From Tubulanus polymorphus (lineage: Eukaryota; Animalia; Nemertea), in assembly GCF_964204645.1 (NCBI RefSeq), contig NC_134029.1, forward strand, positions 11,062,850 through 11,126,849: DNA of 64,000 nt. Reading direction: 5' to 3'. Numbering within the stretch: position 1 is the stretch's first letter; each line of letters opens with the position of its first letter. The notes under the pieces are model-generated. The model saw only the letters and a program-made list of their open reading frames with translations, ran no database searches and was not told where the DNA came from. Below, one piece after another: positions 10,046 to 63,409 of this stretch. A program made the translations under genes and the position numbers.

Positions 10046-10301
10046 ATAAATGAAGAAATCCCACACTTCGAATTTGAAATTATACTATCAAATCTATTTT
10101 TACGAAACCACAACGTTTCGGCTGTTGACTAACAGCCATCATCATCATCATCATTCCACCTGATGATGGCTGTTAGTCAACAGCCGAAACGTTGTGGTTT
10201 CGTAATAATAAATTTGATAGTATAATTTCAAATTCGAAGTGTGGGATTTCTTCATTTATCTACAGTTTACACGGATTATAGTGTTTATTCGACAACTAAC
10301 T
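10046..10301 (+). mobile_element. Penelope-like retroelement pLTR remnant forming an inverted repeat
   Basis: Near-perfect ~100-bp IR (10044-10145 vs 10161-10261). Flanked by a near-identical 12-bp duplication GATT(G/A)TGGTGAG, absent from HINE copy 1, and contains a hammerhead core. Confidence 0.7.
10156..10197 (+). ncRNA. Minimal type I hammerhead ribozyme
   Basis: CCAC-CTGATGA-T-GGCTGTT(AGTC)AACAGCC-GAAA-CG-TT-GTGG: CUGAUGA and GAAA cores, 7-bp stem II, palindromic ACGU stem III, CCAC/GUGG stem I. Confidence 0.8.
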
Positions 10302-13300: not shown

Positions 13301-14586
13301 TCGCCCGCAACAATTCAATATTTTGGTTTTGTCGCCCGCGACAATTCATTATTTTTGGTTTAATCGCCCGCAACAATTCAATATTTTGGTTTTATCGCCC
13401 GCGATAATTCATTATTTTGGTTTTATCGCCCGCGACAATTCATTATTTTGGTTTTGTCGCCCGAGACAATTCATCATTTTGGTTTTATCGCCCACGACAA
13501 TTCATTATTTTGGTTTTGTCGCCCGCGCCAATTCACCATTTTGGTTTTGTCGCCCGCGACAATTCACCATTTTGGTTTTGTCACCCGCGACAATTCACCA
13601 TTTTGGTTTTGTCGCCTGGACAATTCACCATTTTGGTTTTGTCGCCCGCGACAATTCATTATTTTGGTTTTGTCGTCCCCACAATTCTTTTTTTGGTTTT
13701 GTCGCCCGCGACAATTCAATATTTTGGTTTAATCGCCCACGACAATTCATTACTTTGGTTTTATCTCCAGCGACAATTCATTATTTTGGTTTTGTCGCCC
13801 GCGACAATTCTTCTTTTTGGTTTTGTTGCCCGCGACAATTAATTATTTTGGTTTTCATAATTTTGGTTTTGTCGCCCGTGGTTTTGTCGGAACATTAAGT
13901 TTTTTGGTCGAACAGTGTGTTAAGGTTGTTTTGGAAATTTACTCGGTCTGGTATATTTTGGATTACTGTGTATGTCATTTGTCAGGACATTAAACAGAAG
14001 ACGACTTAGGATACTACCTTGCGTGACTCCACTAGTTAGACCGTCTCATTCCAAGATGAGGCGTTCCGTTGATTTCGGTTACAAGTTTCCGTTCAGAGAT
14101 AACTGCTGAGCCATTTGGGCGACCTATCATTGATACTGTTTCCCAATAGCCTGTTTAGTAATGGCTGATGTTGAGCCTTATCAAATGCTTTGTTGAAATC
14201 CCCCGTTGAACAGGATTCTAAGACTGTGCAGAAAACCCGTTATCGCTGCTTTGCAGCTATATTTTACTTCTCTTATTTGTTTGTGTTTTGTGGTCACCCG
14301 TCAACCAGTCAACCCACGATCCTTGTACATACATTGGCGACAACGTTGCGACGTGTCATCCGTCGACCGTCAACCAGCGGGTGAGATATGCACTCTATCA
14401 TCTCTCCAATGGGTCAACCAACAAACAACATAGTCAACTGTCACTAGTCGTCGGTCAACCTGTACATGAACTGTATCTTTGCCGCGCATTGATACCCAAT
14501 TATCAATGTATTCATGCGCCAATGTATTAATGCGCTGTTACATTAACCGCGCAACTTATTAACTCTACGCCAAGGCACTATACTAT

Positions 14587-19327: not shown

Positions 19328-19729
19328 TTTTATCAATTGATTTAGAAGAGCTGTCTAAAAAGTTGTTTGAATTCCGACATATTAGTAAGTAAAGTTTTGA
19401 AGTGGGTCGCCGGATCATGCGTGTACCAGTCAAACGGAAACCCTCACTTGCCTATATATGATTCGTACAAAGGATGTGGTCTAATATTTAGCTTCGGGGA
19501 GGAATTGGCTGTACTAGTAAAAAATGGAGCAAGTTCATCTTAAGCGAGTATGATTAGTATCTGTTTAGTTTGATGTAAATGTTTGGTGATAATGAACAGC
19601 TGATTCAGTGTTTTCGGTTTTCCGTAAGACTGGTGCCTGGTGATCCGCGGCCCACTTCAAAACTTCAGTTACCGATATTTCGGAATTTAGAACGATTTTT
19701 AGGCCGCCTCTTCGAAATCAATTGATAAA
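19328..19729. mobile_element. Degenerate MITE with ~90-bp imperfect inverted repeats
   Basis: TTTATCAATTGATTT...TTTTGAAGTGGGTCGCCGGATCA is mirrored by TGATCCGCGGCCCACTTCAAAAC...AAATCAATTGATAAA. Confidence 0.55.
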
Positions 19730-20834
19730 CAAGAAAATTAATTTTAGAAAATTATTTGACGCCTGGGAAAAAATGTAGAATTTCTGGGCTAAGCTAATGT
19801 GGAATTGCAAATTTGAAATCGAAGTTTTAAGAAATTTGGGGAATGATGTGATTTGGCGATTGGGTAGATGATACAGGTCTTCGACTCTAGGAGTGGTTTA
19901 AATTTTTGTATTGAAAATTCTCAATAATTGATCGCGAACTTGCGACCGACTTCATTTACTTATGCCTCTAAGCTGGTCTGCAACTTCATTGCCTCCATGG
20001 ATGAAGAAAGAGCTCTTCTGATGTCTGCTTCATCATGACTTCGAGCATATCGTGTGGCCTAGCCAGCCGGCCCGGTCCCCGGGCCCGGGCCACGGGTTTG
20101 GCTGTCACTCGATATCCTAGTAGAGTCTTGAGTCTGGGTGGGTTAAAGTAGACATTGTCATTTAAAATAACATGCTTATGTTGTTCTGTATGAATTACCC
20201 GTGTGTCATGTATGTTGTATTAATTTATCTTAAAATTTGTATTTATTGAATTTGGGAATTTTATCCCGGAATTTCAATGTAATAAGGATCAATAAAGAAT
20301 TGAATTGAATTGTCACCTAATACACATGCCATCAGAGGACACGGAGCCGTATATGACAGCTATGCTATTATAAATTGCTAATCTCACGAAACTTGCATAC
20401 TCCTAATATCAAACATATTTTCACAAACGATTGAATATTGAAATTATATGTTTACACATTTTCATATTGACCGCTTGTAGCCGCTGATGAAATTCACGCC
20501 GGCCCTACACACATCCTAGATAGCTTCGTCATTCCACCGGCATGCCCACGTCAGGGTCTGACTTTTATATCAGACTTCCGCATCGTGTATACATCCGCCA
20601 TTTAACCGAATAATCCGATTTACTTATCATTTCTATTTATGCCTGCCGCTTCTGATATAATCATACATCCTTTACTATTACAATACGTCTTCTAATGATA
20701 TTCAATGCAATATAACATTTCGACGTTCAAATATAGGTCATTATATAATAAGAGGAAGCCATTCTACATCTATGTCAATAATATTTTGCCAGATAGTTTG
20801 TTTGTGTACACATAAACCTGTGACGTTTTGCACA
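19729..20834 (-). mobile_element. Helentron-like non-autonomous element, homologous to the insertion at 40236-41413
   Basis: Near-identical to 40234-41326 over about 1.1 kb; begins AACAAGAAAATTAATTTT...TTGACGCC. Confidence 0.7.
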
Positions 20835-21333: not shown

Positions 21334-21581
21334 GAGAAGGCTTTACGGATTTGATTAGATTCATCACCGGTCTTGAAGAAATACCAATTTTGGGATTCAA
21401 CCCAAGTCTGACGTTACAGTTGCGACATCCTGATGATGTTGAGGGCTGTACAAGAGAGTTTCTGATCGCTAATACTTGTGCTAACATCCTGTCAATTCCT
21501 GTGCATAACACCTATGAGGATTTCAAAATGTTCATGGAATATGCTGTCAAAGGTGCAAGTCACACCTTTACAGATTCATAA
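21334..21581 (+). CDS. Terminal exon encoding a HECT E3 ligase C-lobe (G2E3-like), probably transposon cargo
   Basis: Acceptor TTATTTTTCAG at 21333. Peptide LIRFITGLEEIPILGF...ANTCANILSIPVHNTYEDF has the HECT F-x-T-G and catalytic-Cys motifs. AATAAA at about 21660. Confidence 0.75.
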
Positions 21582-22150: not shown

Positions 22151-23273
22151 GTGTTATTTTTTTCATTTTTACTACACTTGTCTCTACGGAAAATGGTTTT
22201 AATTGTTGGTACGAGTATCAGGTTTAAATATTACGGCATTAATACTGTATTCCGTTCTCCGGCGCTAGTTCGTAATGGCTGTATTGGTAGTCGCTTTTAC
22301 AGCAGGCAGAGGCTTACGTAGAGACAAATGTAGTGAAAATGAAGAAATAATAGAATTCCTTGTTGCTTGTGAAACTAGATTCGAGGGTCTTCTCTGTCCG
22401 ATTCAGGCTGAATTGTACCTTATTTCCCTATTTTCCCTACCCAGAACATAATCATACCGTAAACTCTGCCTAAGTCGGATCCGGCCGAGTCGTATAACCG
22501 CTCAACTCTGTGCAATATAGAAAACATTTTCAGTTTCCTATATAAAGATAAAGTAGTGAATTCTGACAATTTATGACCGAACCAATGATGCTCGTAGTGC
22601 CGGCGCTGACGGTTCCAAACAGTAAATGAATTCTGCGGATGGGTTCGAATCCCGGATAAATGACGCTGACAGCAGAACGACTGCTGGCATGTGAGGTCGC
22701 ACCCGGCATGTCAATGCTGATGAGGGGATTCCCCGGCTACAGATTTAGATAGGGCCAATCGATCGTACATCAGACAGATGATACAAGCCGCAAACAACCA
22801 AAAATGTAGTACATATTTTATCATTTGTTTACGTTTTTTCTGCATACAACAGTTTTTATAGTGAATAAACCTTATAATAGCAACCATAGTCCTTAATAAA
22901 TGAGTTCCAAAATATTTAAGAAAATTGGTCTTCCATGTCGGACGAAATTATCGGGTGAGTTTAGGCGGAGTTTACTGTATAATCATATGATCAATTATGC
23001 ATGGTTGAAGTTTCGCGATTGAGATTCATGATGTTGAGATTCATGATGAAGTCGACTTGCAAAATTCTAACTCGATACTAATAACTAGGCACAAAAACGA
23101 CTTTTATGGCGCAAAAACGAAAAATCATAGAGCAAAAACGAATTTTTTCGTTTTTTTTCGCTATAATATTTCGTTTTTGCGGGGTAGCAAAAACGAAAGT
23201 TCGTTTTTGCTAGGGCGCAAAAACGAATTTCATGGCGCAAAAACGAAAAATCATAGAGCAAAAACGAATTTTT

Positions 23274-24474
23274 TTTGGTTATTCCTTGCAACTTCTCATT
23301 TCCACGTTTCATACAAGAAGTAGTTGAATGAAAGTACAGTTAGGCTGAACCTGACAACCCATAATGAGTGCTAGCATCGAGATTTGATTATTTCGATTTT
23401 ATTTTCGGTGTCATTGAAATTCGTAAATAAAGGTTCAATTGTCATTGTACTTAGCATAGCTTAGATTGGGTTTCATATTTCTACATTTTCTACAAGGAGG
23501 CCTTAAGGGTCGTCCCCGGGTAGAGGTCAAAACTTGGTTTATATTCTCAAGTTGCTGGAGACTACCATCTGCATTCATACCTCGATTTGTCTGGCCTATG
23601 AGAGTCGAACAACATTTTCCCATACACAGGCTTGGCTTTAGTGTAGATGAAGGTTAGGCACTGCACATTGTGGATTAACTGCAACTCTAAACTCTCAAAA
23701 TGAAACGAGTCAACAAGAAAGATCCAATAATTGAACGTTTATCTAACTATATTAATTAACAGCTTAAGAGATATACATTATACATTATAGACAAAAGAAA
23801 TCAGTTCTACATTTTATCCGAATCAAGCGTTAAAGCCACAGATTCGCTTAGCTTTGGCTTGAATTCTGGTTCCATTGCTTCGTATTCTATTGAAATCCCC
23901 TTTGTTACCTCGGAATATCGCTTAGCTTTTAAAGACTACAAATTTGGTCCCAGGAAAACCAAGTAAAGCGGGGTACTACTGTACATCAGCTGTTGACTTA
24001 TTTTTCTCTGGTTGAATCAAGTTATTACTGAATGAAATATAATCACTGCTGCTACAAGAAGTCTTTTCTCGGTATCTGTATGTCCATCTTAGCAAATCAA
24101 CTTGGTTCATGATTCCTCCTTTTATAGATAGTCTAAAAATAAGAATTGTTACATTTTTCTAACAGATGCTATGTCATTTCTTTAAAAAACCTGATGATAT
24201 TCTCACCACAGCAAATAAATTATTCGCAATAAACCATTTTACAGTTGCTAGCCGCCATTTTGTTAGGGTACTTTTGTCCCGTATTGTTGGGTCATTTTTT
24301 CTCTTTTTTAAAAACTATCCATGATGTGTGTTGTATCATATTTCATCTGCCCATGGATGGATTTTGACAGTTTCAGCAACATTCAAACCGCTTAAATCTC
24401 TAGTTTTCAGTTATGTAAAAATCATTTTTGATGGGTTTCGTCGTCAGACGAACCCATCTATGGCATCGTCGTCA

Positions 24475-24518: not shown

Positions 24519-25879
24519 GATGTTTCTTTATGACACGATTTAAGCTGTTTGTGTGGACCGACAATTCTGTAATTTCACACAGGTATTCTCTACTTGATGT
24601 AAATGGTGCAGCTTGGTTTATATTTGATTCCGATGGTTATAAGTGCTCTAATTTGGTTAAAAGATAATTAACGTTACTCGCTAGTTCAAGCCGCTGTATA
24701 GCGCGTTGCTACGACGACGCTCGATCAACATACTGGTACTCGCTGTGTAATACCAGGGAAGTGTGTTTGAATGTTGCTGAAACTGTCAAAATCCATCCAT
24801 GGGCAGATGAAATATGATACAACACACATCATGGATAGTTTTTAAAAAAGAGAAAAAATGACCCAACAATACGGGACAAAAGTACCCTAACAAAATGGCG
24901 GCTAGCAACTGTAAAATGGTTTATTGCGAATAATTTATTTGCTGTGGTGAGAATATCATCAGGTTTTTTAAAGAAATGACATAGCATCTGTTAGAAAAAT
25001 GTAACAATTCTTATTTTTAGACTATCTATAAAAGGAGGAATCATGAACCAAGTTGATTTGCTAAGATGGACATACAGATACCGAGAAAAGACTTCTTGTA
25101 GCAGCAGTGATTATATTTCATTCAGTAATAACTTGATTCAACCAGAGAAAAATAAGTCAACAGCTGATGTACAGTAGTACCCCGCTTTACTTGGTTTTCC
25201 TGGGACCAAATTTGTAGTCTTTAAAAGCTAAGCGATATTCCGAGGTAACAAAGGGGATTTCAATAGAATACGAAGCAATGGAACCAGAATTCAAGCCAAA
25301 GCTAAGCGAATCTGTGGCTTTAACGCTTGATTCGGATAAAATGTAGAACTGATTTCTTTTGTCTATAATGTATAATGTATATCTCTTAAGCTGTTAATTA
25401 ATATAGTTAGATAAACGTTCAATTATTGGATCTTTCTTGTTGACTCGTTTCATTTTGAGAGTTTAGAGTTGCAGTTAATCCACAATGTGCAGTGCCTAAC
25501 CTTCATCTACACTAAAGCCAAGCCTGTGTATGGGAAAATGTTGTTCGACTCTCATAGGCCAGACAAATCGAGGTATGAATGCAGATGGTAGTCTCCAGCA
25601 ACTTGAGAATATAAACCAAGTTTTGACCTCTACCCGGGGACGACCCTTAAGGCCTCCTTGTAGAAAATGTAGAAATATGAAACCCAATCTAAGCTATGCT
25701 AAGTACAATGACAATTGAACCTTTATTTACGAATTTCAATGACACCGAAAATAAAATCGAAATAATCAAATCTCGATGCTAGCACTCATTATGGGTTGTC
25801 AGGTTCAGCCTAACTGTACTTTCATTCAACTACTTCTTGTATGAAACGTGGAAATGAGAAGTTGCAAGGAATAACCAAA
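23274..25879. repeat. Long inverted duplication: 1115-bp arms (23274-24388 / 24765-25879) with a 376-bp spacer
   Basis: Arms are reverse complements. Identical ORFs appear on opposite strands (23435..23623- = 25530..25718+). The spacer holds a (GTCT)n HINE-like head. Confidence 0.95.
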
Positions 25880-28334
25880 CAATAATAAAAACAATTGAGA
25901 ATTAGAATTACTGTAGTTAAGAATTTATTCAAATAAAGTGAAAACTTCATTGTTAGCTGATACGGGTACATACATGTACATAAAACAATAACAACAATTT
26001 ATATCATGATGCACAGACAAATGAAAATAAAATATTATTTATTCATTTTCCATTTTGGGGAAGCATGATGGTAGTTTTTGGAACTGATGCAGTTTTGATG
26101 AACTAATTTTTGGCTAGTAAGTATCACGTTATACAGTGTGTCCTGAACAATTATTGTTCCTCCTGATTCAACTGAAGATTCCGACTCATGTCAACAAGGA
26201 AATGAGGTCCTCCATCAATGGATCAAAAGTTGAGCTCGGACCTCTATCTCATTTGCCGAAATTATAGCAACATTTATGGGGGACCTCTTCTTCACTCTAG
26301 CTACTATGGTCCGGCCATACGCATCTTCAAGCTACTAACCTATTAATTGTGGTCTGATGCCAGTTGAAAATGAAATGTTGAAGGGAGCCGAAGACAACAC
26401 CCTTGTAGGCGTATCTCTATAACCCGAAAAAATTCGGTAAAGATTTTGCTAGGGCACAAAAACGAATTTTATGGCGCAAAAACGAAAAATCATAGAGCAA
26501 AAACGAATATACTGAAATACACGCAAAGAAAACAGCGCTGAATCTCGGAATCACGATACACGCGCTGCAGTTAAAGAGCCATAGGAAAAAAACTAGGCAA
26601 GATATCTTAAAATTTCAAAGCGAACACCGGCAGCAGACACCGGGCCAGGAAAAATTTTCAAAACGTGTATCGTCGGTTCCTAGCATGATTTCAGCGTTCT
26701 TCGAGAATTGCCTGAAATTTCAGCGTTTTTCTGGAATTCCCTGAAATTTCAGTGTTTTATTTTCGGCGTTTCAGCGTTTCAGTGTTTCAGCTTTTTCAGC
26801 GAAGTTCAGGGACCGTTTGCGCCCTAGCAAAAACGAACTTTTCGTTTTTGCTAGAGCGCAAAAACGAATTTTAACGCGCAAAAACGAAATTTTATAGAGC
26901 AAAAACGAAAATATTCGTTTTTGCTCCATGATTTTTCGTTTTTGCGCCATGAAATTCGTTTTTCCGCCCTAGCTAAAACGAAAAGTTCGTTTTTGCTCGT
27001 TAAGTTTCGTTTTGCGTTTTTCTAGAATCGAGGTCATATGAAAATAACTCAATAGAGTAAAAACGAAAGTACGTTTTTGCAAGGGTGCAAAAACGAATAT
27101 TTTCGTTTTTGCGCTATAATATTTCGTTTTTGCGGGGTAGCAAAAACGAACATTCGTTTTTGCTAGGGTGCAAAAACGAATTTTATGGCGCAAAAACGAA
27201 AAATCATAGAGCAAAAACGCAAATTTTCGTTTTTGCTCTATAGGTTTCGTTTTGCGTTTTTTCTATAATCGAGGTCTTGTAAAAATTAATGCATTTGGCC
27301 CTTATCAGCCACCATATTATAAATACGCTTTAAACTGTTCAAATAATTTTGTTCATCACTGTATGGTTGTACACTTTGGGATTTCACAAAAAATGATATT
27401 GCAAAAATATTCACTACCTGGAGAAAAGCAGTCAGGAAACTTACTCCATTTGATATCGGGCGATGACCCAATTGAATATCAGGTGTATAATAGATTTATT
27501 AAGTTTTTCTTGTGCCATCAAACATTCGAACAATAGAATTGTCACAGCAGCGGATCTCAATGTTCAAATAATTACATCTCGAAAAATCGCGAACAAAAAG
27601 TAATTATTACCTTTTGTTCGCGATATTTCGAGATTGAAGGGAATGGACTTATAGTATACCACAAATCTACATCAGTCACATGAAGATACATTGAGTGGCC
27701 GCCGCAATCATCGACTTCAGGCACCTGTTTCAATCCGTGACTGATGAGTTGATTTTTGCGGAAACGCACGACATTATTATCGAACTATGTATTACCTGAT
27801 ATGTATGTAACTGGTCAGTGGATATATTAAATTTTGAATACAGTGGATATTTAGGGTTTTCTGTTGCTTCACAGAAAACCCTATTGAAATTCGCGTGATT
27901 ATTAGGGTTGCATGGGAATGTTGATAAATCCACGTTATAAAGGCACTGTCGAGCCGTAAACATCGGAAATTTGGCTCCGTTCAATTAGTAGCCATGTTGT
28001 GTTTTCTTTCAGAAATTTCTCTCTTCTTTTCGAGGAAGAGCTATCGAATTATTCCCTCTCTTCTCCACAATCAATTTCAAAGTCAATTTTATGAATTTAT
28101 TGCTCAGCGGGTCCGAGTCCGAGAGTTTACGAGTCCGGCGTTCGCGTGTCTGACAGGTTTACGGCAATTTGTTTGTTACCTCTTTAATATTTTGGATTTC
28201 TTGTTATTCCGGTTATTTCATTTAAGTATATTGCTGATCAGTTCATGTAACCAAAAGCGTCAATAAACAGATTTTGAATTGATCAAGTTTAAATCAAGGT
28301 CGTTGAGTCGCGGAGGGCTACTAGAATTAGGAAT

Positions 28335-28766
28335 GGCATCAGACCACAATTAGGTTAGTAGCTCGAAGATGCGTAGGGCCGGACCCCAAAAATAGTACCT
28401 AGAGTGAAGAAGAGGTCCCCCATAAATGTTGCCATAATTTCTGCAAATGGGATAGGTAACGAATTTCGGTTATATGTATGAAATCCATTGATCCTGAGAG
28501 ACAGATTGATGATGAAATAAGGGATTCCCTGGACTTTTTTTGCTTGGAGTAAGGGTACCAAACACGGTGGGGGATTCCCTTAGATATTTGGCTCGGATGT
28601 ACTGGCATACCTGTACTGGGATACCCCTCCTTTCTAAAGGTTTGATTATTTCAAAAGTTAGGTTTGGTATGTGGGGCGAAAACCACTTCAATGCGTAGCT
28701 AAGATGCTGGCCTATGAGCCATAAGCAGGATTTCCCCTGAATTTACGCGCTTATATATGAACTAAA
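28335..28766. repeat. Host interspersed repeat interrupted by Polinton 1 (continues at 44358-44425; uninterrupted copy at 45325-45817)
   Basis: 28335-28766 plus 44364 onward matches 45325-45817. A diverged inverted fragment lies at about 26250-26360. Confidence 0.9.
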
Positions 28767-28859
28767 AGTAATTGGGAAAGTAGGCTTTCATACCAGAGGA
28801 CGAGAGGACGAGACACCACTCATCACCACAAGTAATTTTTTTTCCTAATAAATGGGAGA
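28767..28859 (+). repeat. Left TIR of Polinton 1
   Basis: AGTAATTGGGAAAGTAGGCTTTCATACCAGAGGACGAGAGGACGAGAC...ATGGGAGA is the reverse complement of 44265-44357 with about 2 mismatches. Confidence 0.95.
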
Positions 28860-31800
28860 GAATGAACACCAGCCAGAAAATAATGATATTAATAAAAATC
28901 AATATTATTGCCAATATTGTAAAAAAATACGTCGATACATCTAATAAAACACGACATGAAAAAACTGCAAATCATATAAAAAATGTAATAGATTTTGAAA
29001 CTCCAGAAAATTCCAATGAAAGAAAAGAAAGATTAGAAAATATGAATGTGGATGAAATAAAATGTGAAGTTTGTAATGAATTTATAGTAAAAAGGAATTA
29101 TAATAGACATCTCGAATCACAAAAACATTATAAAAATTTAAATAAAAATGTTTTAGGATCAGAATATTTTGATAATAAACCTCAACAAGTAAAAAAATCA
29201 ACTTCAAAAACTAAATCCATTTCAAATAAACCTTACATGGAAAATGTTAGAAATTATATTGATTCACTAGAAATAAAAGATACAATTGAAATCTTAGAAA
29301 CATTACATAGTAAAATTGGTCCTGCAGCTATTATATTTAGATTTTTTAAAGGTACAACAATAGAAGATTATAGTAAATTTAATGAAATAATAGAAAAAAT
29401 ACTAGATTTGATAACAGATGTTGAATATCCAAAAATTAGTATCTCTGGGAAAGTAAGTTTTATAAAGTCAGAAGAAAAAATGGATTATAATATTCAAACA
29501 CTCTCTGAAGAAATAATTTCAAAAACACAAATAAAAGTGAAGTTAGAAAAAATATTTTATGAATTTAAACGTCATATTGAAGAAAGATATTTTGAGGGTT
29601 CTGGTTTAACATTGAATGAAATCATATATTTAGATTTAAATGTTTATAATACAAAAAGGAATAAAACATCAAAAAGTAATAAAATGTTTAAAAATGATTC
29701 AAACTTTACAACAGAAAAGGATATTAAAGCATCATCTTATATTAAATTACCATTTACAACAAAAGCAGTAATAAATATTCAAAATGAAGATAATAAATGT
29801 TTTCTATGGTCAATTATTAGTTGTTTACACCCAACAGAAGATATGACGCATAGTCTTAGAATAACAAATTACCGGAAATATGAAACATTATATAAAATTG
29901 ATCAATATCCTGTAACTATAAAAATGATTCCTAAAATAGAAAAAGTTAATAATTTAAAAGTAAATGTATTCGAATTAATGCAATTACCCAAGACAAAAGG
30001 TGAAAATATTAAAGATTATACATTGGAAGCTTTATATTTAACAGAATATTATGATGATGAAAATGCTATAGATCTGTTATATTACAAAAAAGATGAAAAT
30101 GAACATTATATGTGGTTAAAACAAATTGATTTATTCTTTAGAACAGAAAGTGATCACCATAATAAAATTTATTTATGTAGAAAATGTTTATCTAAATTTA
30201 TGACTGAGAATACATTATTAAAACATAAAGAATTATGTGATAATAAAGATTTTTGTAAATTAATAATGCCAACAGAAAAAGATTATAAATTGAAATTTAC
30301 TAATCATAAATTTAAAAATATTGTTCCATTTGTAATTTATGGGGATTTTGAATCGTTGAATAAAGAATTAACTGATCAAGATAGAAAAGAAATATATAAC
30401 AAAAAGCAATTATTAAAATCAATGGATAAAGGAAATGAATTAAATGAAGACACAATACAAGACCCACCAATTATAAGTACAATTAAAAAAGTTCATCAAA
30501 GAGCTGCTCTTATGGAATTTATATAAAATCAAATTATCCTGAATTATATGAAAGTCAATATATTTCTTTTAGAGGTGAAAATGTAGTTAATGATTTTTGT
30601 GATAAAATGATTGAATTAGAAAGTGATTTTACAAAATTATTAAACAAAAATAAAAGAATAGTTATGACAAAAGAAGATGAAATTGATTTTAATTATGCAA
30701 CTCATTGTTGTTATTGTGAAAAACGTTTTTATTCATTTGATAAAAAAGTTAGAGATCATGATCATTTGAATTCAAAATATCGTGGAGCTGCTCATGAAGA
30801 TTGCAATTTACAAGCTAAAAAAGTAAATTTCGTACCAATATTATTTCATTATTTATCAGGATATGATACCCATCTATTTATAAAACAATTATCGGGAAAA
30901 TTGGGTGCAATTAATCAAGAAATAGAAGAATATAATGCTATGAATGAAGCAAATGTAAGAAAATATGATTTTAAACTATTAGCTAAAACATCTGAAAAAT
31001 ATATTTCTTTTCAATTTGGTTGCATTAGATTTTTAGATTCTTATAGATTTCTAGCAAGTTCATAAGATAATTTATCAAAAAGTTTAGTTGATAATGATTT
31101 TGTTATAACTCGATATTATTATCCAAATGAACAAGATTTTAAATTATTGAGATATAAAGGCGCAATTCCTTATTCATTTTATAAAACACACAATGATTTT
31201 AATGTAACAGAATTATTAAAAGATCAATTTTATGATCAATTAAAAGAGGAGTATGTGAAAGACGAAGTTTTTAATAGAACATTAAATATTTGGAACCATT
31301 TTAAGATGAAAAATCATGGTGAATTAGTTGATTTATATTTAAAATCAGACGTTATGATATTGGCTGACATATTTGAAAAATTTAGAGAAGTTAATTTGAA
31401 TCATTTTAATGTTGATCCTTGTTATTGCTACTCTAGTCCTGGTTTAACCTGGCAATGTGGTTTAAAATATACAAATGTAGAATTAGATTTATTAAAAGAA
31501 CCAGATATGGTTTTATTATTTGAAAAATCAATTAGAGGTGGAATTAGTGGTGTTATGGGAGATAGGTATTTTAAAGCAAATGATGAATATAAATTATTAT
31601 ATATTGACGCCAATAATTTATATGGTTGGGCAATGATGCAACCTCAACCATATAAAAATTTTATATTAACAGAAGTTGAAAATGGTGATAAAACTGATTG
31701 GGAAAGCGCAATTGCGAGTTTAAAAGATGAAGCACCAATTGGTTATTTCTTTGTAGTTGATTTAGAATATCCTGAAAATATAAAGTTTAAAACAAGAAAC

Positions 31801-33924
31801 TTACCTTATTGCCCAGAACATTTAAGTGTAGATGATAGTTATTTAAGTGAATACCAGAAGAAAATAAAACCGAAAGATCATGTTTTTACAGAAAAATTAA
31901 TACTTACTCAAAATAATAAATACAATTATATTGTTCATTATAGAATGTTAAAATTTTATCTAAAACAAGGAATGAAATTAAAGAAAGTACATAGATATAT
32001 TGAATTTAATCAATCGAAGTGGTTAGAAAAATATATAGATTTCAATACTCAACAGAGAACAATATCAAAAACAGATTTTGAAAAAGATTTCTTCAAATTA
32101 ATGAATAATAGTTTTTATGGTAAAACATGTGAAAATATTAGAAATAGAAATGATATTGAATTAGTAAATAATTCTGAAAGATTAAGACATTTACAATCAA
32201 GTCCTAGACATTTAGGAAATAAAAGATTTGAAGATTATTTAACAGCAGTTAAATTAAAAAGAACATTAATGAAATTTAATAAACCTATATTTATTGATTC
32301 GACTGTTTTAGAAGTATCAAAATTATTAATGTATGATTTTTATTATAATGTTTTACAACCACTTTTTGGGGAAAAGCATATTGAAATATTATATTTTGAT
32401 TCTGTAACAGCTGACACCCCAATATTATTAAAATGTAATGATAAAATATTGATAAGAAGAATTTCAGAAATAATTCCAAAACAAAATGAATGTTATATTT
32501 CATATGGAGAAAAAGAATTAATACAAATAAATGGATTAATGGATGTTTGGACAAGAAATGGATGGAAAAAATTAAAGAATATTATGAGGCATAAAACAAA
32601 TAAGAAAATCTATAGAGTTAGAACTAAATTAGGGTTTGTAGATGTTACAGAAGATCATAGTTTAATTAAACGAAATGGCGATGAAATAAAACCAACTGAT
32701 ATAAAAATTGGAGATGAATTATTACATAAAAGATTTTTCCAAAGAATGAATCATATGTCATTTGATGAAATTATTGATAATATTTATAATATAGAACCCG
32801 AAACATTAGAAGAAAAAGAATATTTTATCAAAGGATTTTTCATGGGTGATGGTTCAGCAGGTGTGTATAATTATGTTTGGGGTAATAAATATTGTTGGTA
32901 TTTATGCAATCAAGACTTAAAATTATTAGAAAGAATTAAGAAATTCTGTGAAGAAGTTTATTCACATAAAACATTTAGAATCATGGATGTTATGAAATCA
33001 ACAGCAGTTTATAGAATACTTGTAAATAATCCTAAAGATTTTGCTATAAAATATAATAATGAATTCTATATTCATGCAATAGTGAAAAGTAATACTTCAA
33101 CTAAAGAGAAAATAGTGCCAGATTATTATGTATTAAATGCAAAAGATAATTTAAGAAAATGGTTCTTCATTGGATTCTATGCCGCAGATGGTTCAAAAAG
33201 TTTCCAAAACCACAAAACAATATCCTTTGCTCAAAAAGGAAAAGTTGCTATATCAGGATTGCATATATTATGTAGTTCATTAGGATTTAATATGAATATA
33301 GAATTAATTAAATCTAAACCAAATTGTTTTAATTTAAGGCATGTAGAAAAAGAATTAACAGAAGAAGTTAAAGATTTATTTGAAATATATAACCCAACTG
33401 ACTATGTTTATGATTTATCAACAGATGATGGAACATTTAATTCTGGGTTCCCATTAATCCAAAAAAATACCGACAGTTACATACTAAAAATCAAGACAAA
33501 TGACATAACAAAAGACTTAAAAACATTAAAACATTATTTTGATTTTAGCAATTATCCTAAAGATCATGAACTATTTAGCAATGATAATAAAAAGATTCCT
33601 GGTAAATTTAAAGATGAATTAGGAGGTGATGAAATGATTGAATTTGTTGGGATAAGAAGTAAAATGTATAGTTACAGAACAAAAGATCATGAAGCTAAAA
33701 AGTTAAAAGGAATAACAAAACATGTGGTTGATAAACATATAGAATTTCAAGATTATATAAAGTGTTTATATAAATCAATTGTTATGAAACACAAAATGAA
33801 TTGTTTAAGATCAGAAGATCATGAGATGTACATTAATGAAGTTGAAAAAACTAGTTTAAATCCATTTGATGATAAAAGGCATATTTTAGATGATGGTATA
33901 AAAACATTACCTTATGGCCATTAA
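28852..33924 (+). pseudogene. polB: Protein-primed family B DNA polymerase with N-terminal zinc fingers, an endonuclease VII-like insert and an intein; two frameshifts (about 28925, about 30510) and a stop at 31063
   Basis: ExoI IYGDFES, VRDHDH...RGAAH..CN, FHYLSGYD, FLDSYRF, ExoIII LYLKSDV, motif A YIDANNLYG, motif B KLMNNSFYGK, split motif C YFD|TDS. Assembled from ORFs 28862..30526, 30607..31065 and 31147..33924. Confidence 0.95.
32401..33468 (+). mobile_element. Intein (356 aa) with a LAGLIDADG homing endonuclease at the pol-c site
   Basis: In-frame insert between YFD and TDS. Block A SVTADTPILL, block B DVTEDHSL, endonuclease motifs FIKGFFMGDGS and FFIGFYAADGS, block F YVYDLST, block G LIQKN followed by Thr+1. 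Confidence 0.95.
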
Positions 33925-35238
33925 AACATAAAATCAATATCATCATACTCGAAATCACTATTGGCTTCTTCATTTTCATTTAATTGTTCAGGTTCTTCTT
34001 CCATTCCATTTTTCTCATTTAAATAAAGTTCTATCTTGTTCCACATTTCATCTCGCTCTCTTTGTTTCTTTTTGTTTGTTAATTCATCAAATGGAATTAT
34101 AATATCGATGTTTAAATAATTTACAATCTTATTTAAAAAGAATTCATAATTAATTGAATCTGTTATTCTATTTTCCAAATAATACATTAATATTTGTTTG
34201 AATATTTTTTTTATATTTTCCATATCTTCTTCTGTTAATTTAGGTTTTTCAAAATAATCGTTAAATAATAAATATAAATACATTTTCTTTTGTTTTGTGT
34301 TAAATGTTGGTGGAATAATTGTTTTTATAATATCTTTTTTAGTTATTTCACCATCTTTATTTTCTATTATTTTCATTTTTTCAAGCCATTGCATATATTC
34401 TGGTGTATGATCTTCCATAGAAAATATTTTAAAAATTTCATCTAGATAATTTAATTTTGGATCTATGAGAAAATCTCTAGTTTTTTCTTCACCCAATAAA
34501 TTCTTTAGCCATCCACATTCATTACAAAATAACACAGTACCTTCTTGTCTTAAGGTCGCATAAATACATTGTGGGCATTTTTGTTTATAATTTATTGGTA
34601 ATAGATCTTCATTAAGCTCTTGGTATTTTCTTACGTTTTCTTTATGTTTTATTGTTCTATTATGTAGATTTGAATTACTTGTTGTAATAATCAATTTACA
34701 ATATTTACAATAATATGTTTTTCTTGTTAATTCATTATATTGTTTTTCTAATTTTTCAACTGTTTCTTTATTATCTGGTAACGTTTTCTCATATTTTATT
34801 TTTTCTAATAAATTATTTTTTCTTTCATTAAATTCAGTTTCAAATTTATTAGAAATTTTATCTATATGTACTTTACGAAATTGATGATTCTCCCAATCTT
34901 CTATATTTTCAGGGCTATATTTTATTCGACAAGGCTCGCAGAGATGATCTTTTATATTATCCTTATCATAGAATAAGAAAGGTCTTTTCCAAATATCTTC
35001 AGGTTCAACTTCGGCAGAATTACTATTACTTTCATTACTATCAACATTAGCCGTTGCGCCATTAATTCTACACTTCTCTGAATGTTTTTTAACATAATTT
35101 CTTGAGAATAATTTATAACATTTTGGACAGTTTAGTTTAGGGGGTTTATAATTTTCATCATGTTTTTTTCATATGTCGAGCCATATTACTTTTTCTTAGA
35201 AGTTCACCACAAATTTCACATGCTATCTTCTCATCCAA
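33921..35238 (-). pseudogene. Multi-zinc-finger protein with a C-terminal VLTF3 (poxvirus A2-like late transcription factor)-like region; start codon reads TTG, frameshift at about 35170
   Basis: Frame open from about 35170 to 33921 with several CxxC...H motifs. The C-terminus has CPQC...G..FCNECG and KPKLTEEDMENIKKIFKQI...SINYEFFLNKI, which resembles the VLTF3 pattern by eye. Confidence 0.55.
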
Positions 35239-38967: not shown

Positions 38968-41604
38968 ATGGATGTAGAAGGTGGAGAAGGTTTTCCATTG
39001 GATCCTTTAGATGAACCTGGTATAAGTGATGAACAACCACCTGATTTTGATGAAACAAGTTTCAGTAACGAAAATGAAACAGCATATAATTCTAATTTAG
39101 TAAGACCTGATACTAATGAATATATTAGAGAAGCTAAATCGAGAATAGATCATGAAAATAAAAATTCATATTTAATGAAAAATGAACTAGAATAAGACAA
39201 ATTAACTGATGAATTGAAACCAATGTTAAAAAGATCTGGTTTCAATATAACAGATAAAGGTATGGATTATTTAGTAGAAGGTTTGAAATATTTTAATGGT
39301 GATTATTATTGGGAATTGAAAGGCGACTATTATTTTAAGATTTCAAATATTAAAAGTACCGATAAAATAATAACACAATCAACTTCTAATTTATTAGAAC
39401 AATCTAGAATTAAGAAAATCAATAATGATGTTATAACTGATGTTACACAAAAAGAAAGATCTGATAATTTAAAAGAATTTAAACAAAGAAATGCTAAATT
39501 TTTTAAGATAATTAATGAAAATTTAGAACCAGAAACAATTCCTAAAGAAGATAAAACTTCCAAAACTAGTAGACCTAATTCAAGAGAAGTTCAAACTGAA
39601 AAACTTTTACCGAAGGGATTACTTGATGCAACAGATCAAGAATTAGAAGATTTAGATATATTTTCTGATAAAGCAACTAGAGAGATTATTAGTATAAGAA
39701 ATGCATCTGATAAAATTGCGCATGATAAAAGTATAAGAGATTTTAAAATTAGAACTTTAGAAAAAGAATTAACTGATAAAAATAAAGAAATAGAACAATT
39801 AAAATTAGATAGAGATAATAAAGTTATTGAAGAAATTGAATTTAAAAAAAGAAATACATATTTAGAAAAAGAAAAAGATGATTTAGAATATAACATAGAA
39901 TTACAAAAAGAAGAAATTAAATTATTATTAAAATCATATGATTATAATATTAATAGATTAAAAGTTATTTTTAAAGATTTGTTGATAAAACCAGATTCTA
40001 AAATATCATTGAAAGATAGAATAAAATAGTTATTTAAATTAGAAGGAATAACAATTCTTTCAATTCTAACAGCTGTAACTATGTTATTTACAACAATTGG
40101 TTTAGCTATATCAAATGCTTTGAAATCTACTCCTACTCCCAATAAACCAGATAAACCACCGAGTAATAATTCTATACAAGATAAAGTTAAAGATGGTTTA
40201 AAGAAATTAGCAAAATATTTATGGGAACTATCTAACAAGAAAATTAATTTTAGAAAATTATTTGACGCCTGGGAAAAAAATGTAGAATTTCTGAGCTAAG
40301 CTAATGTGGAATTGCAAATTTGAAATCGAAGTTTTAAGAAATTTGGGGAATGATGAGATTTGGCGATTGGGTAGATGATACAGGTCTTCGACTCTAGTAG
40401 TGGTTTAAATTTTTTTATTGAAAATTCTCAATAATTGATCGCGAATTTGCGACCGACTTCATTTACTTATGCCTCTAAGCTGGTCTGCAACTTCATTGCC
40501 TCCATGGATGAAGAAAGAGCTCTTCTGATGTCTGCTTCATCATGACTTCGAGCATATCGTGTGGCCTAGCCAGCCGGCCCGGTCCCCGGGCCCGGGCCAC
40601 GGGTTTGGCTGTCACTCGATATCCTAGAGTCTTGAGTCTGAGTGGGTTGAAGTAGACATTGTCATTTAAAATAACATGCTTATGTTGTTCTGTATGAATT
40701 ACCCGTGTGTCATGTATGTTGTATTATTTCATTTTAAAATTTGTATTTATTGAATTTGGGAATTTTATCCCGGAATATCAATGTAATAAGGATTGAATTG
40801 AATTGTCACCTTATACACATGCCATCAGAGGACACGGAGCCGTATATGACAGCTATGCTATTATAAATTGCTAATCTCACGAAACTTGCATACTCCTAAT
40901 ATCAAACATATTTTCACAAACGATTGAATATTGAAATTATATGTTTACACATTTTCATATTGACCGCTTGTAGCCGCTGATGAAATTCACGCCGGCCCTA
41001 CACACATCCTAGATAGCTTCGTCATTCCACCGGCATGCCCACGTCAGGGTCTGACTTTTATATCAGACTTCCGCATCGTGTATACATCCGCCATTTAACC
41101 GAATAATCCGATTTACTTATCATTTCTATTTATGCCTGCCGCTTCTGATATAATCATACATCCTTTACTATTACAATACGTCTTCTAATGATATTCAATG
41201 CAATATAACATTTCGACGTTCAAATATAGGTCATTATATAATCACAGGAAGCCATTCTACATCTACGTCAATAATATTTTGCCAGATAGCTTGTTTGTGT
41301 ACACATAAACCTGTGACGTTTTGCACATCGATTTACGGCTGTCGTTTGTAAAATGACGCTGAATGGTTAATATTGTTTAGGTTTCATAATGGTAACGTTT
41401 TATAAGGCGTCAAAAAAATCTGCTGCAGCTTTACCTGGAGTTATTGCATCAATTGTTGGTTTTATATTAAAATCTGCAGGTAATATTCTTAACTTTGCTG
41501 CTGAACATATTATTTTATTTTTAATTACAGTTGTAAGTGCTATTATTTTTGGGTTAGTAAACATGATATCAAAAAGATATCAAGAAAAAAATAATAAAAA
41601 ATAA
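38968..41604 (+). pseudogene. Coiled-coil protein with C-terminal TM segments; stops at 39193 and 40027; interrupted by an insertion
   Basis: ...KYLWELS|KKSAAALPG is split by 40236-41413. An uninterrupted homologue lies at about 63410-64000 (-). Confidence 0.8.
40236..41413 (-). mobile_element. Helentron-like non-autonomous element inserted into Polinton 1
   Basis: Inserted in an A-run with no TSD. Subterminal IR TTGACGCC...GGCGTCAA; on the minus strand a terminal hairpin then CTTGTT. Second copy at 19729-20834. Confidence 0.75.
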
Positions 41605-41628: not shown

Positions 41629-42721
41629 ATGAGTGGGAGTTATATAAGTCCTTCTAAGATTTCTAGAATATCTAATGCTATTAAAGCAGAAAGATCACAT
41701 CGTATAATTACTCATAACCCTTCAAATATTAATCCCGATGAAACTTTATACGTTAGAATCCCTCGATTAACACAAAATACTTTTTATGTTCCAAATAGTA
41801 TTTATTTATCGGCCGATATAAAAGTAATCGGTAATTATAATAATTATGTTGTTGATAATGTTGGAAGATATTTGATTAAAAAGTTAACAATAAAGATTGG
41901 ACCAGAAACAGTTTTCTCATTAGATGATTATAATTTATTTATGCATTATAAAGATTTATGGTTAACTAAAGAAAATAGAAATAATATGATATTCAAGGCA
42001 TCCAATCGGAAAACCATAATAAATTAAGATCAGGAGCTAATGACGCAATAGTAACTCGTGCCACAGATAATTTGATTAAAAAGATTTATGGAAGCAAATA
42101 TAAAATTCCATTAGATTTTGAATTGATAAATAATAATGCACCTTTATATAAATACGCAATTCAAGAAGATATTATATTTGAGAATATGATACAGTAACTG
42201 ATGAAAATATTTCAAGTATAAATCAAACTCAATACAATCAAGGATTTTCATTATTATATGATTATATTGATAAATTTAAAACTGTAACTATTAATGCAAT
42301 TGATGAAATAATTAATGAGAATATTAACTTCCCAAGAAGATCTATTAAAGGTATATTAATATTTTTTACCATTGCAACATATTCTAATGGCGCAATAAAG
42401 GTAGATAATTATTATAATCCTGAAATAACAAAAGTAGAAATAACTATCGAAGGAATAGCAAATAAAATATTTTGCCAAGGAATGAGAATGATAGATCAGT
42501 GGCCAGAAATTAGAAAACATTTTATGAATGAAAAAGTAAATTCATTTGAAAATTGTAATATTAATCAAATTGATTATTATACCGGCAATAAATATGCATT
42601 ATGGTTAGATTTTAGAACAACAGAGGATAATTCATTACATGGTTCTGGGAAAAAACTACAGAACACTAAAGATGGAATACAATTATTCATGAAAAAGAAA
42701 AAAGGAAGCTTAAATTTTTAA
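41629..42721 (+). pseudogene. Major capsid protein (double jelly-roll), frameshifted, with internal and C-terminal deletions
   Basis: THNPSNINPDETLYVRIP, NYVVDNVGR, NINFPRRSIKGIL, KYALWLDFRT...LHGSG. Highly similar to 62157-63376(-). Deletion at about 42180. The capsid call rests on size, context and motif recognition. Confidence 0.8.
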
Positions 42722-42722: not shown

Positions 42723-43260
42723 AAATACTAAAGAACAATATTTAAGAAATTTATATTACAACCCTGAGAGTTCGGTTGCTTATTCTTCTACTAAAAATAT
42801 ATGGCGTAAAGTAAAACAAGATAAATTAGATAAGATAATCCCACAAAATTTAGTTAAATATAAAGATATAAATGAATTTATGTTATAACAACCAACATAT
42901 ACAACACATAAAAAAATTGTTAGAAAATATAAAACTCGTAAAACTATGGTAAGTTATGTAGATCAACAGTGGCAAGGAGATTTAATTGATATGAAAAATG
43001 TTAAGAAAGATAATGATTATTATTGGTGGTTATTGAATATAATTGATATTTTTAGTCGTTATGTATGGAGCTTCCCACTTTATAGAAAAGATGCTGTACA
43101 AACATCAAATGTTTTAAGAAAATTTCTTTCGGATGATAAACTAAAACCAGAAAAAATACAATTTGATGATGGAAAAGAGTTTGATAATTCATTTGTTCAT
43201 GAACTCTTAGATAATCATAATATTGAATATTTTTCAACAAAATCAGATAAAAAAGCAGCA
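42723..43260 (+). pseudogene. rve-type integrase, N-terminal half only
   Basis: KEQYLRNLYYNPES, QQWQGDLIDM, IQFDDGKEF. Ends at SDKKAA before the catalytic Glu and has an in-frame stop at about 42886. Confidence 0.9.
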
Positions 43261-43461
43261 GATTATTTAGTCATGACTGAAATAAATAAATGGATTGGAT
43301 ATTTATCGTTTCAATTAGGAGGATTTATGACATTATTATCAACTGGGGTTATAACATTTTCAAATATTGAAAGTAAAAATATTTCTATAATAAATGAGCG
43401 AGGTGAAAGAAGTGAAGGAATTAACTGTGAAGAAAAAACCGAGAACTCAGAAACAAATTGA
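43261..43461 (+). pseudogene. C-terminal remnant of the homologue of 58206-58808, fused to the integrase by a deletion
   Basis: DYLVMTEINKWIGYLSFQLG...STGVITFSNI matches DYLVMTELQK*VGYASFQLG...STGVITFSNI in element 2. Confidence 0.8.
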
Positions 43462-43945: not shown

Positions 43946-44272
43946 TTAATCAACAATTTCTAAATCATGATGGCCATCTTCATTTTTCCCATGATAGATT
44001 ATTTTAAATCCTACTAAATCTTTCAATTCCTCAGTACTCAATGAAACCCATTTATCAGGTAAAAATACTTTAAATTCTCGCGATGTACTAACATTACAGT
44101 AGCTTAAATTAGCTGATACTTTCTCTCCATATTTAGTTTTTATCTTTTCTAATTTCAATATCTTATGTTCAATTTCTTTTGTAACATCAACTAACTTTTT
44201 TATTTCAAATTGTTTTTTTGTTGGTTTAATTCTGTTATTTATTGTTGCTAAGAATGCTTTTCTATCTCCCAT
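43946..44272 (-). CDS. Terminal hypothetical protein starting within the right TIR
   Basis: Intact 108 aa with TKYG...VFLP; ATG lies inside the TIR after TAAAT. Confidence 0.7.
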   Translation of the reverse strand: MGDRKAFLATINNRIKPTKKQFEIKKLVDVTKEIEHKILKLEKIKTKYGEKVSANLSYCNVSTSREFKVFLPDKWVSLSTEELKDLVGFKIIYHGKNEDGHHDLEIVD

Positions 44273-44357
44273 TTATAAGGAAAAAAAATTGCTTGTGGTG
44301 ATGAGTGGTGTCTCGTCCTCTCGTCCTCTGGTATGAAAGCCTACTTTCCCAATTACT
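44265..44357 (-). repeat. Right TIR of Polinton 1
   Basis: Reverse complement of 28767-28859, followed by TSD ACTAAA. Confidence 0.95.
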
Positions 44358-46051
44358 ACTAAACTCTTGAATTTCTTGTTTTTACTATAGGATATAGAAG
44401 ATTTTGAAATAGTGGTCTGAGCTCTGACAGCCAATACAGCCAAAATAACAAATTTTGAAGTTTGGATGAAATTTCACAAATTATTTTTATCTTTTGCACA
44501 TATAAGTCGTCTTGAGGCATTCATTGAGACCTAATTCGCTGATTTTAATCAGTTTCATGGTAGGATTTGGTAATATTTTTGCTTGTAGAAGGCTAGAATC
44601 GCAGATTTCGGTCAATTTTTAGGCATGAACCGTAAGATATTTTCTCGTAGGAGGCTCGGTCTAAGCTCATAAATTTATTTCATAAAGGCCATCGTTGCCC
44701 ATGCAGAATAATCACATTAATTCAGCTTTCTTTGATTAAGTTATCTAGTTTGGCTGACTTTTTGGTGCCAGATACTGTCAGGAATTTAAGGGGTAGGGGA
44801 AATGCATATTTTCGTTGAAACCATGGCAACCGAAAGGACATTGTCAGAGGCCAGTTGTGATATTTTTCCTAACTAGTACTGGTGACAACTACGCTTGGTA
44901 TATAAAATTCGTCCCGGCCGAAGGCCTGTGGACGCAGTAGGGTGCATTCGAATTAGGCCTTCAACGCAAGAAAACGCCAAATCTAAAGGTTTCAGCCAAT
45001 TCGATGATGAAAATGGCATTTTTTTCAAAAAATGCTTAAAGATTGTGTTTCTGATTTTTATCCATAGCCATATATTTATATCCATCAGTGAAAAAAATCT
45101 ATCAAGTATTCAGAAAATGTTGTATAATTGTTTTATTCATATTTTGAAATGAATGTTTGACAGAAAACTTGGATTTTGTCGCATACGCGCGATTTGTGCA
45201 TTAGCATGTAATTCCATGTGTAATTGGCCGAGAGCTATTGTATTGCGTTGTATAACTAGGGTGTCTCCACTCTTTCTAAAACTGTACAAAAACTAATGCT
45301 ATTCTTAAGTTTGGGTACTAGTCAGGCATCAGACCACAATTAGGTTAGTAGCTCGAAGATGCGTAGGGCCGGACCCCAAAAATAGTACCTAGAGTGAAGA
45401 AGAGGTCCCCCATAAATGTTGCCATAATTTCTGCAAATGGGATAGGTAACGAATTTCGGTTATATGTATGAAATCCATTGATCCTGAGAGACAGATTGAT
45501 GATGAAATAAGGGATTCCCTGGACTTTTTTTGCTTGGAGTAAGGGTACCAAACACGGTGGGGGATTCCCTTAGATATTTGGCTCGGATGTACTGGCATAC
45601 CTGTACTGGGATACCCCTCCTTTCTAAAGGTTTGATTATTTCAAAAGTTAGGTTGGGTATGTGGGGCGAAAACCACTTCAATGCGTAGCTAAGACGCTGG
45701 CCTATGAGCCATAAGCAGGATTTCCCCTGAATTTACGCGCTTATATATGAACTAAACTCTTGAATTTCTTGTTTTTACTATAGGATATAGAAGATTTTGG
45801 AATAGTGGTCTGAGCTCGAATTACGTTCGACTCAGAGAGAAAACAAACGACAGAAAAGTATCAGGTGATTATCGATAGCCTACTACGGTACACACAGTTG
45901 ACAAACAGTGTTAGGCCTATGCCGGTTGGTGCGTACTGGGAATAAATATACCGGTTGGTCAGTTGGTTCGGTTGTGAAGTGTGGAAGCTAAGCAAGAAGA
46001 AAGCCTACCTACCGGTATTTATTTGTCTATATATATAGGCCTAATATATAG

Positions 46052-55535: not shown

Positions 55536-55776
55536 CTTAAAATATTCATATACATGAATAACATTTAAATTGACAGATTATTCAATATAAAAGTGTGAGC
55601 TCTTATAGAATAGATATATAGATATATTTTAAACATTATTTCAATATTTGTATTTGTATTATTGTATTGAGTTAGATTTTTAAACATTAGAAGTGTTAGT
55701 AAAGTGTGATTGAAATAATACATATATAAATCATTGAACTTCTAAAATCAATTTAGTAAAAAAATTTAATATTAAA

Positions 55777-59169: not shown

Positions 59170-59175
59170 AATAAG

Positions 59176-63376: not shown

Positions 63377-63409
63377 TTATTTAACAAAAAAATTAATTAT
63401 TTATTTTTA

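Follow-up and report, generated by a model that had tools for sequence, protein, structure and literature searches.

A multicopy Polinton with a full-length pol-c intein in its protein-primed DNA polymerase, very likely in an animal genome

Introduction

Inteins interrupt family B DNA polymerases (PolBs) of Mimivirus, other Nucleocytoviricota and archaea at motif C, between YGD and TDS, a site known as position III or pol-c (PMC549080). Viral-like DNA polymerases with inteins are also present on nuclear scaffolds of the algae Klebsormidium and Tetrabaena and of the labyrinthulid Hondaea, and Chloropicon has inteins in Pol delta/zeta (PMC10710043); the words "animal" and "metazoa" do not occur in the accessible part of that paper. 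The locus described here raises the question of whether an intein of this kind can also reside in a protein-primed polymerase (pPolB) of a Polinton, integrated in an animal genome, and from which source it would have come.

Endonuclease domains of other types, namely HNH and VSR, are known from the pPolB2 of nematode, oomycete and mollusc Polintons (PMC10748475), and the terms "intein", "Hint" and "LAGLIDADG" are absent from the main text of that work as far as it was available. One sentence in PMC11071308 suggests, with reference to PMC10748475, that "intein invasions" lie behind the endonuclease insertions in Polinton pPolBs. The word "intein" is absent from the available part of PMC8502044, and inteins are mentioned only in general terms in those of PMC12220804 and PMC3671162. 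Apart from that one speculative sentence (PMC11071308), a full-text search of freely accessible articles, judged mostly by title and abstract, found no description of a Polinton or animal intein of such a kind.

In what follows, we analyse a stretch of 64,000 nucleotides, called the window, together with homologous proteins, metagenomic contigs and sequencing reads. In motif C of a multicopy Polinton pPolB, very likely in an animal genome, the window has a complete pol-c intein that includes a LAGLIDADG endonuclease. The account that we consider probable as a whole is that this intein likely has a giant-virus origin, and it is predicted to splice and to spread into empty copies of the gene.

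Read evidence comes mainly from X6, a whole-genome raw-read DNA run with the same species label as the runs in which the element is best represented, which belongs to one study and of which 12% was read. The contigs of four other runs (X1 to X4) support the presence of the intein only, while X5 (a small share of a marine metagenome) and X7 gave scraps that were left unused. The features of the window are collected in Table 1.

Table 1. Features of the window, with positions counted from its first letter.
Feature	Position	Strand	Evidence
High-copy host repeat split by the element	28335..28766, continues 44358-44424	.	Uninterrupted copy at 45325-45817
Host terminal exon, G2E3-like HECT ligase (outside the element)	~21334..21581	+	Match to XP_074656802.1; AG acceptor upstream
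Terminal inverted repeat, left end (93 bp, starting with AG); 6-bp target duplication 28761-28766 before it	28767..28859	+	Repeat comparison
Protein-primed PolB gene, broken; pieces 28862-30526, ~30487-31065, 31066-33924	28862..33924	+	Homologues P0055/P0089; Atlas PF03175 DNA_pol_B_2
Pol-c intein, full-length, 356 aa (Hint + LAGLIDADG endonuclease), Ser1...Lys355-Asn356; splicing predicted	32401..33468	+	Profiles, predicted fold, X6 1068-base skip
Hint region, N-terminal (blocks A, B; Thr83/His86 at 32647-32658)	32401..32730, end approximate	+	TIGR01445 residues 2-88; model secondary structure
LAGLIDADG motif 1 (block C), Asp150	32821..32853	+	Asp150 in 16/16 aligned Polinton-type inteins
LAGLIDADG motif 2 (block E), Asp263	33160..33192	+	Pfam LAGLIDADG_3 residues 253-307; Asp263 in 16/16
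Hint region, C-terminal (block F Asp338, block G Lys-Asn) and Thr+1	33358..33471, start approximate	+	Residues, model
Candidate major capsid protein gene, in pieces	41629..42721	+	Weak Pfam Capsid_N, E=0.0011; likeness to the neighbouring element's capsid-like frame
rve integrase gene, broken/truncated	42730..43461	+	Pfam rve, E=3.6e-10
Terminal inverted repeat, right end (97.8% identity to the left); second copy of the 6-bp duplication after it, 44358-44363	44265..44357	-	Repeat comparison

Identification of the Insert

The first-pass annotation, made from the letters of the window, had proposed a 1068-bp in-frame insert in the catalytic motif of the polymerase. This proved exact to the base, as the translation gives 356 stop-free codons, preceded by YFD and followed by TDS, within a long open frame, and reads of X6 leave out precisely these 1068 bases. 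The insertion point between YFD and TDS is the motif C site equivalent to YGD-TDS. All the residues named at the outset were recovered: Ser1, Thr83 and His86 of the TxxH motif, Asp338 in block F, Asn356 at the end, Thr+1, and Asp150 and Asp263 in the two LAGLIDADG motifs.

Block F is without His, and the penultimate His, which is a usual but non-obligatory helper residue, is missing from the intein, Lys355 standing in its place as had been stated. The same Lys-Asn ending is found in 79 of the 224 RNA-primed-type inteins retrieved (a redundant set), in 4/16 of the Polinton-type inteins and also in the homologue P0005. It is thus an ordinary variant of the allele family, and the lysine was rejected as a sign of decay.

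The profile searches place the insert among inteins. The Pfam profile Intein_splicing gave E=4e-7 with 30.4 bits, which is below its cut-off of 35.8, LAGLIDADG_3 gave E=4.7e-7 with 30.4 bits, above its cut-off of 22.5, and the NCBIfam profile TIGR01445 (intein_Nterm) was passed with 30.5 bits against 24.5. The AlphaFold model, built with an alignment of 11 rows, has a pLDDT of 77.8 and a pTM of 0.83, and its top full-length matches in Foldseek are endonuclease-bearing inteins: TliVMA (5e-17), PhoVMA, PI-PkoII, PI-PfuI and PI-SceI. When PDB was searched by the intein sequence, just two weak intein matches were returned. The profiles, and Foldseek on the model, thus agree on a Hint fold into which a LAGLIDADG nuclease of two domains is inserted. 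On these grounds the intein identity assigned at first reading is confirmed, and the insert can be classified from its sequence as a full-length class 1-type pol-c intein with a LAGLIDADG endonuclease, for which splicing and cleavage are predicted.

Three other readings of the insert were rejected. An assembly artefact is at odds with short contigs of other runs that span the left junction (X3, 32212-32442; X4, 32130-32534). A Hedgehog-type Hint domain does not agree with the ligation junctions, the LAGLIDADG endonuclease, the exact empty allele and the intein-type structural matches. Finally, base composition speaks for no recent acquisition, the GC content being 0.25 in the intein and 0.24-0.25 in the exteins.

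The Polinton Element and its Surroundings

Polintons, or Mavericks, are defined by terminal inverted repeats that begin with AG and by a 6-bp target-site duplication. The element has both, together with a protein-primed PolB and an rve integrase, and it is an insertion of 15.6 kb, lying within a low-GC island. The Atlas clusters nearest to the N-extein are PF03175 protein-primed polymerases (feature matches 0.93-0.95), and the polymerase pieces are 41-43% identical to the uninterrupted homologues P0055 and P0089. No direct Pfam match to PF03175 or PF00136 was obtained for the polymerase frames, as for divergent pPolB classes. The assignment of the host gene to a Polinton protein-primed polymerase is thereby upheld, since the Atlas clusters, the terminal repeats, the duplication and the integrase all agree with it.

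The capsid match lies below the cut-off of its profile and on a broken frame, and the capsid pieces are 81-95% identical to the capsid-like frame of a neighbouring element. Among the 17 frames scanned inside the element, there was no Pfam match to a packaging ATPase or a protease, two genes that complete elements typically have; tblastn of the neighbour's Pox_A32 ATPase against the first element gave no match, and PHROGs gave no name for the small frames. The polymerase is interrupted twice upstream of the intein, by a frameshift at around 30.5 kb and by a stop codon (31063-31065), so that this copy cannot encode a full polymerase. Judged from its frames, the window's copy is a deleted, non-autonomous relic that is incomplete as an element, and a dead one, with polymerase, capsid and integrase all broken, yet with the intein frame still open. 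Most of the related X6 reads differ from the window at the two lesions (248/249 at the stop and 253/305 at the frameshift), and the damage to the polymerase therefore appears largely private to this copy.

Some further observations concern the element itself. An endonuclease VII-like (HNH/zinc) segment at 30670-30815, within the exonuclease region of the polymerase (Pfam E=0.0015, and 2e-8 in P0055), would mean that the polymerase has a second nuclease-like insert beside the intein. Tail-to-tail with the polymerase gene there is a 415-codon frame with zinc-finger segments on the minus strand (33921-35168; Pfam zf-U1, E=3.6e-7). A host repeat of 1.1 kb is inserted inside the Polinton at 40234-41327 and is 97% identical to 19728-20834.

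The neighbouring element (55738-64000) is also of Polinton type and runs off the window. It has a Pox_A32 ATPase, an uninterrupted chromodomain integrase and a free-standing endonuclease VII/HNH frame at 55777-56430. At the DNA level, the capsid regions of the two elements agree at 89-95% of positions, but that of the neighbour is inverted relative to the integrase, while the two integrases are only 51% identical, which suggests an exchange of modules between Polinton lineages.

We now turn to the host. Integration in a host repeat, as had been claimed, is borne out by the split of the repeat at 28766/44358, by its intact copy further downstream and by 916 X6 reads that pass from 28766 straight into right-flank sequence, the depth there being ca 1450-1570. 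The terminal exon upstream of the element has 63% identity, along 86 aa, with a G2E3-like HECT ligase of Tubulanus polymorphus (XP_074656802.1), and the C-termini coincide; this was the sole match among 93 candidates. The Atlas clusters nearest to the exon are commonest in Chordata and Mollusca. The surroundings of the element are gene-poor and rich in satellite arrays, and Rfam gave 0 matches in the window. Positions 1-13855 are taken up by long 31-bp satellite arrays, among which units of 154 bp are scattered, and an inverted repeat pair of 1118 bp (23271-24388 and 24765-25882; 99.9% identical, 376-bp spacer) was also observed.

The exon match and the satellite-rich, gene-poor surroundings make it very likely that the host genome is that of an animal. 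The first-pass annotation had supposed an animal host, and this assignment stands, with one exon and one named match behind it in addition to the Atlas clusters. If the DNA were instead that of a protist or a symbiont, the finding would reduce to a known allele that has turned up in another gene of a unicellular eukaryote. The intein-bearing relatives do come from environmental assemblies, which would fit such an origin. However, the exon shares its C-terminus with a nemertean protein and its clusters point to Chordata and Mollusca, the host repeat to which the element is joined has very high depth in the whole-genome run X6, and the window is gene-poor with satellite arrays. A non-animal source is for these reasons highly improbable.

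Empty and Filled Alleles

Both intein-bearing and intein-less alleles were found within the species, which answers in part a check that had been proposed for the locus. In total 55 X6 reads, with 38 start places, carry the exact 1068-base skip, and from these reads it follows that empty and filled alleles coexist. The exact joint was found only in the X6 raw reads: it did not appear in the X1, X2 and X5 contigs, nor among the 15 joints listed of 85. One X1 contig contains a second type of joint, in which 1073 bases are skipped and 5 other letters stand between, giving a net difference of 1068; we read this as a diverged empty allele.

Depth over the intein adds the filled copies to the picture. 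At 85% likeness, X6 reads cover the flanking extein bins at ca 350-420 and the intein at 245, 240 and 164. At 90% likeness, the depth is 220-237 over the first half of the intein and 11 in the least-covered host bin, which gives roughly 20 or more copies of the intein, provided that this host bin is single-copy. Over the second endonuclease half (32981-33420) the depth at 90% likeness is only 84-142 compared to the 220-237 of the first half, and this lower cover suggests divergence or deletions among the copies there. An internal deletion variant, with a joint from 33107 to 33462, was seen in 2 X6 reads and 1 X3 contig and is rare.

Relatives of the Intein and its Origin

Successive homologue searches gave 35, then 128 and then 2034 matches at E up to 0.001, of which the best 150 of the 2034 were listed. 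The carriers are of two kinds, Polinton-type polymerases and RNA-primed PolBs. The Polinton-type carriers, drawn from ENA, JGI, NCBI and Logan records, have the intein at the same site and are 41-58% identical to the exteins of the window. They include the uninterrupted intein-bearing pPolBs P0055, P0089 and P0090 (1476-1509 aa), the fragments P0003, P0005 and P0007 with 65-75% intein identity, the cluster P0004 with 55 members on contigs of up to 825 kb, and the cluster P0088, whose 121 members include fragments that may lack the intein. No intein-less pPolB was among the fetched homologues, as intein-based queries would give. In the metagenome scan (15 loci) there was no close relative and no Polinton context, the best hit being L084, a mini-intein in a viral-type PolB, and a phage collection gave 2 weak unannotated matches only. 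Separately, intein relatives were observed in type II topoisomerase-like proteins, so classed by precomputed Pfam domains (P0124, P0130, P0136, P0146, P0153 and P0162), where they are non-allelic.

Sixteen complete Polinton-type inteins could be aligned. They represent about four lineages, near-copies included, and are 41-48% identical to the query. All 16 are full length (333-356 aa), and T83, H86, D150, D263, D338, N356 and Thr+1 are invariant in 16/16, as is Lys237, while Ser1 is present in 15/16. Residues kept at such identity point to long selection on both splicing and endonuclease. By this comparison, at least 4 Polinton lineages carry the same-site intein. Between these lineages the intein identity (40-47%) is no higher than the extein identity (41-54%), which gives no hint that the intein has homed from one lineage to another recently, and the similar distances fit one old capture.

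Among the RNA-primed carriers there are many giant-virus MAG contigs (80/100 loci kept) and the Chloropicon Pol delta, and 85 of the 94 homologous inteins extracted are inserted at YGD-TDS. The intein of the window is 37-40% identical (E 1e-54 to 1e-70) to the inteins of all eight viral-type RNA-primed PolBs compared (8/8), while the exteins have no significant similarity to the same eight, with a best E of 0.022. A similarity confined to the intein indicates that the intein moved without its host gene.

The phylogeny was based on 48 rows, comprising 7 Polinton inteins, 9 viral-type inteins with a shared C-terminal signature, 26 other RNA-primed ones (12 chosen and 14 random, from 111 candidates in the 320-375 aa pool) and an outgroup of six prokaryotic, archaeal-type inteins, whose archaeal label is inferred and whose branch is long. 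Mini-inteins of less than 290 aa and near-identical copies were omitted, and most of the rows termed viral are metagenomic proteins whose class was assigned only from Pfam PF00136 and the motif. The Polinton inteins form one clade (100/100), which joins the viral group with the signature G-F/Y/T/S-P-L-I-x-K-N (97/87), inside a clade of 25 rows (99/98). Two of the sister group rows, L003 and L004, are giant-virus MAG contigs. Two further trees gave the same shape. When the 35 RNA-primed rows were forced to be monophyletic, without the Polinton inteins, the cost was 5.3 log-likelihood units, and the constraint was unrejected by the AU test (p=0.146). Nesting among the giant-virus-type inteins is accordingly favoured but unproven.

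The source of the intein is thus likely, and with good support, a giant-virus PolB. Such a source, an RNA-primed PolB of the Nucleocytoviricota, was part of the original proposal; it gains from the intein-only identity and from the nested position, while the AU test does not reject a sister position. The donor could alternatively have been a cellular Pol delta of a protist, another unsampled PolB, or an allele that predates the split of the sources. To the AU result, which leaves room for this, can be added that the nuclear Pol delta of Chloropicon primus carries a member of the allele family (also PMC10710043). However, the Chloropicon intein is only 31% identical and falls outside the 99/98 clade, and giant-virus MAG contigs are among the nearest sister rows, which have the unusual C-terminal signature in common with the Polinton inteins. 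We consequently regard a donor other than a giant virus as improbable.

The original proposal had the intein crossing into a protein-primed PolB and entering the germline with the Polinton. The lateral movement of the intein and the protein-primed nature of its host are retained from it, with the qualification that the transfer was not confined to this genome. Either it occurred a single time, in a common ancestor of several of the Polinton lineages, or the intein has spread among them since.

Mechanism

Following the chemistry of class 1 inteins (PMC7765530), splicing would start with an N-O shift at Ser1, helped by Thr83/His86. Transfer to Thr+1 would come next, and Asn356 would then cyclise without a penultimate His. 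Ligation of the exteins would rejoin the D-T-D catalytic motif, which implies that the intein-carrying copies need splicing for an active polymerase. By analogy with the biology of homing endonucleases, the excised protein could then cut the motif C site of an empty copy, and repair off a filled copy would convert it. For the capture itself, a single event is conceivable in which a Polinton virus and a giant virus co-infected one cell, followed by inheritance and by spread among Polintons.

Endonuclease domains are expected to decay without homing, according to the homing-cycle model. Both catalytic aspartates have been conserved over a long time, which argues that homing paid off; this bears on the past and leaves present activity apart. 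The persisting empty alleles fit an ongoing invasion, resistant sites or a weak enzyme alike. It is also conceivable that splicing has been kept and homing lost, the intein being one old gain inherited with its Polinton lineage and the empty alleles representing a sister sub-lineage that was uninvaded or has resistant sites. The similar divergence of inteins and exteins between lineages would agree with this, as would the persistence of empty alleles, one of them diverged at the site (the X1 joint), and the fall in read cover over the second endonuclease half together with the 33107 to 33462 deletion variant. On the other hand, the LAGLIDADG aspartates and Lys237 are kept in every one of the 16 inteins at an identity of only 41-48% to the query, and none of these inteins has lost its full length. 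Inheritance without homing is in our judgement unlikely.

The most far-reaching extension of the giant-virus origin and predicted homing proposed here is a live homing cycle in animal genomes, in which a giant-virus-derived clade travels in Polinton viruses between animal lineages, still converts empty Polinton copies in the germline, and has made the replication of most copies in this family dependent on splicing in animal cells. We put this forward tentatively, as a possibility that is somewhat doubtful in its full form.

Comparison with Known Systems

Hedgehog Hint domains cleave without ligating exteins and have no endonuclease. The intein of Chilo iridescent virus lies in ribonucleotide reductase. 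It is named in PMC549080 and resembles the present one in being the intein of an animal-infecting virus, but it is of the glutamine type and belongs to a large iridovirus, outside chromosome-resident elements. With the Hog-Hint of Hedgehog (PMC7765530) the present case has in common a Hint fold in an animal genome; the present insert, however, ends in Asn ahead of Thr+1, bears LAGLIDADG motifs and is precisely absent from the empty allele.

The closest similarity is to the pol-c inteins of other PolBs (PMC549080), with which the site in motif C, Ser1, TxxH, the terminal Asn, Thr+1 and the endonuclease are shared; the intein is 30-40% identical to the pol-c inteins of giant-virus MAGs. Unlike these, it resides in a protein-primed PolB without detectable extein similarity, in an integrating Polinton with many copies and in a likely animal genome. 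The nuclear cases of PMC10710043 are alike in that an intein entered a eukaryotic nuclear genome within a viral polymerase gene, but they concern endogenised viral-like polymerases of algae and a labyrinthulid, whereas the present carrier is a Polinton family whose host is likely an animal and in which alleles with and without the intein occur together. In PMC10748475, too, Polinton polymerases (pPolB2) have acquired endonuclease domains, but of the HNH and VSR types and described as fusions, while here a complete Hint and splice junctions interrupt the catalytic motif. The present intein belongs to an allele family already known, while its host gene is of a new class and its host genome very likely of a new kingdom.

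Conclusion

Several consequences would follow for inteins and for Polintons. Intein-bearing pPolBs are prone to mis-alignment or omission in Polinton surveys. The presence of empty and filled copies side by side in one species makes the homing cycle accessible to study in a single genome. A multicopy, conserved and endonuclease-bearing intein in what is very likely animal chromosomal DNA would extend the known range of inteins. It also shows that the gap between RNA-primed and protein-primed family B polymerases, which have little in common apart from D-T-D, can be crossed by an intein allele, a step that by ordinary homing was considered implausible even between closer PolBs (PMC549080). If the giant-virus source is correct, the intein would testify at the molecular level to an encounter of animal-associated Polintons with giant viruses inside one cell.
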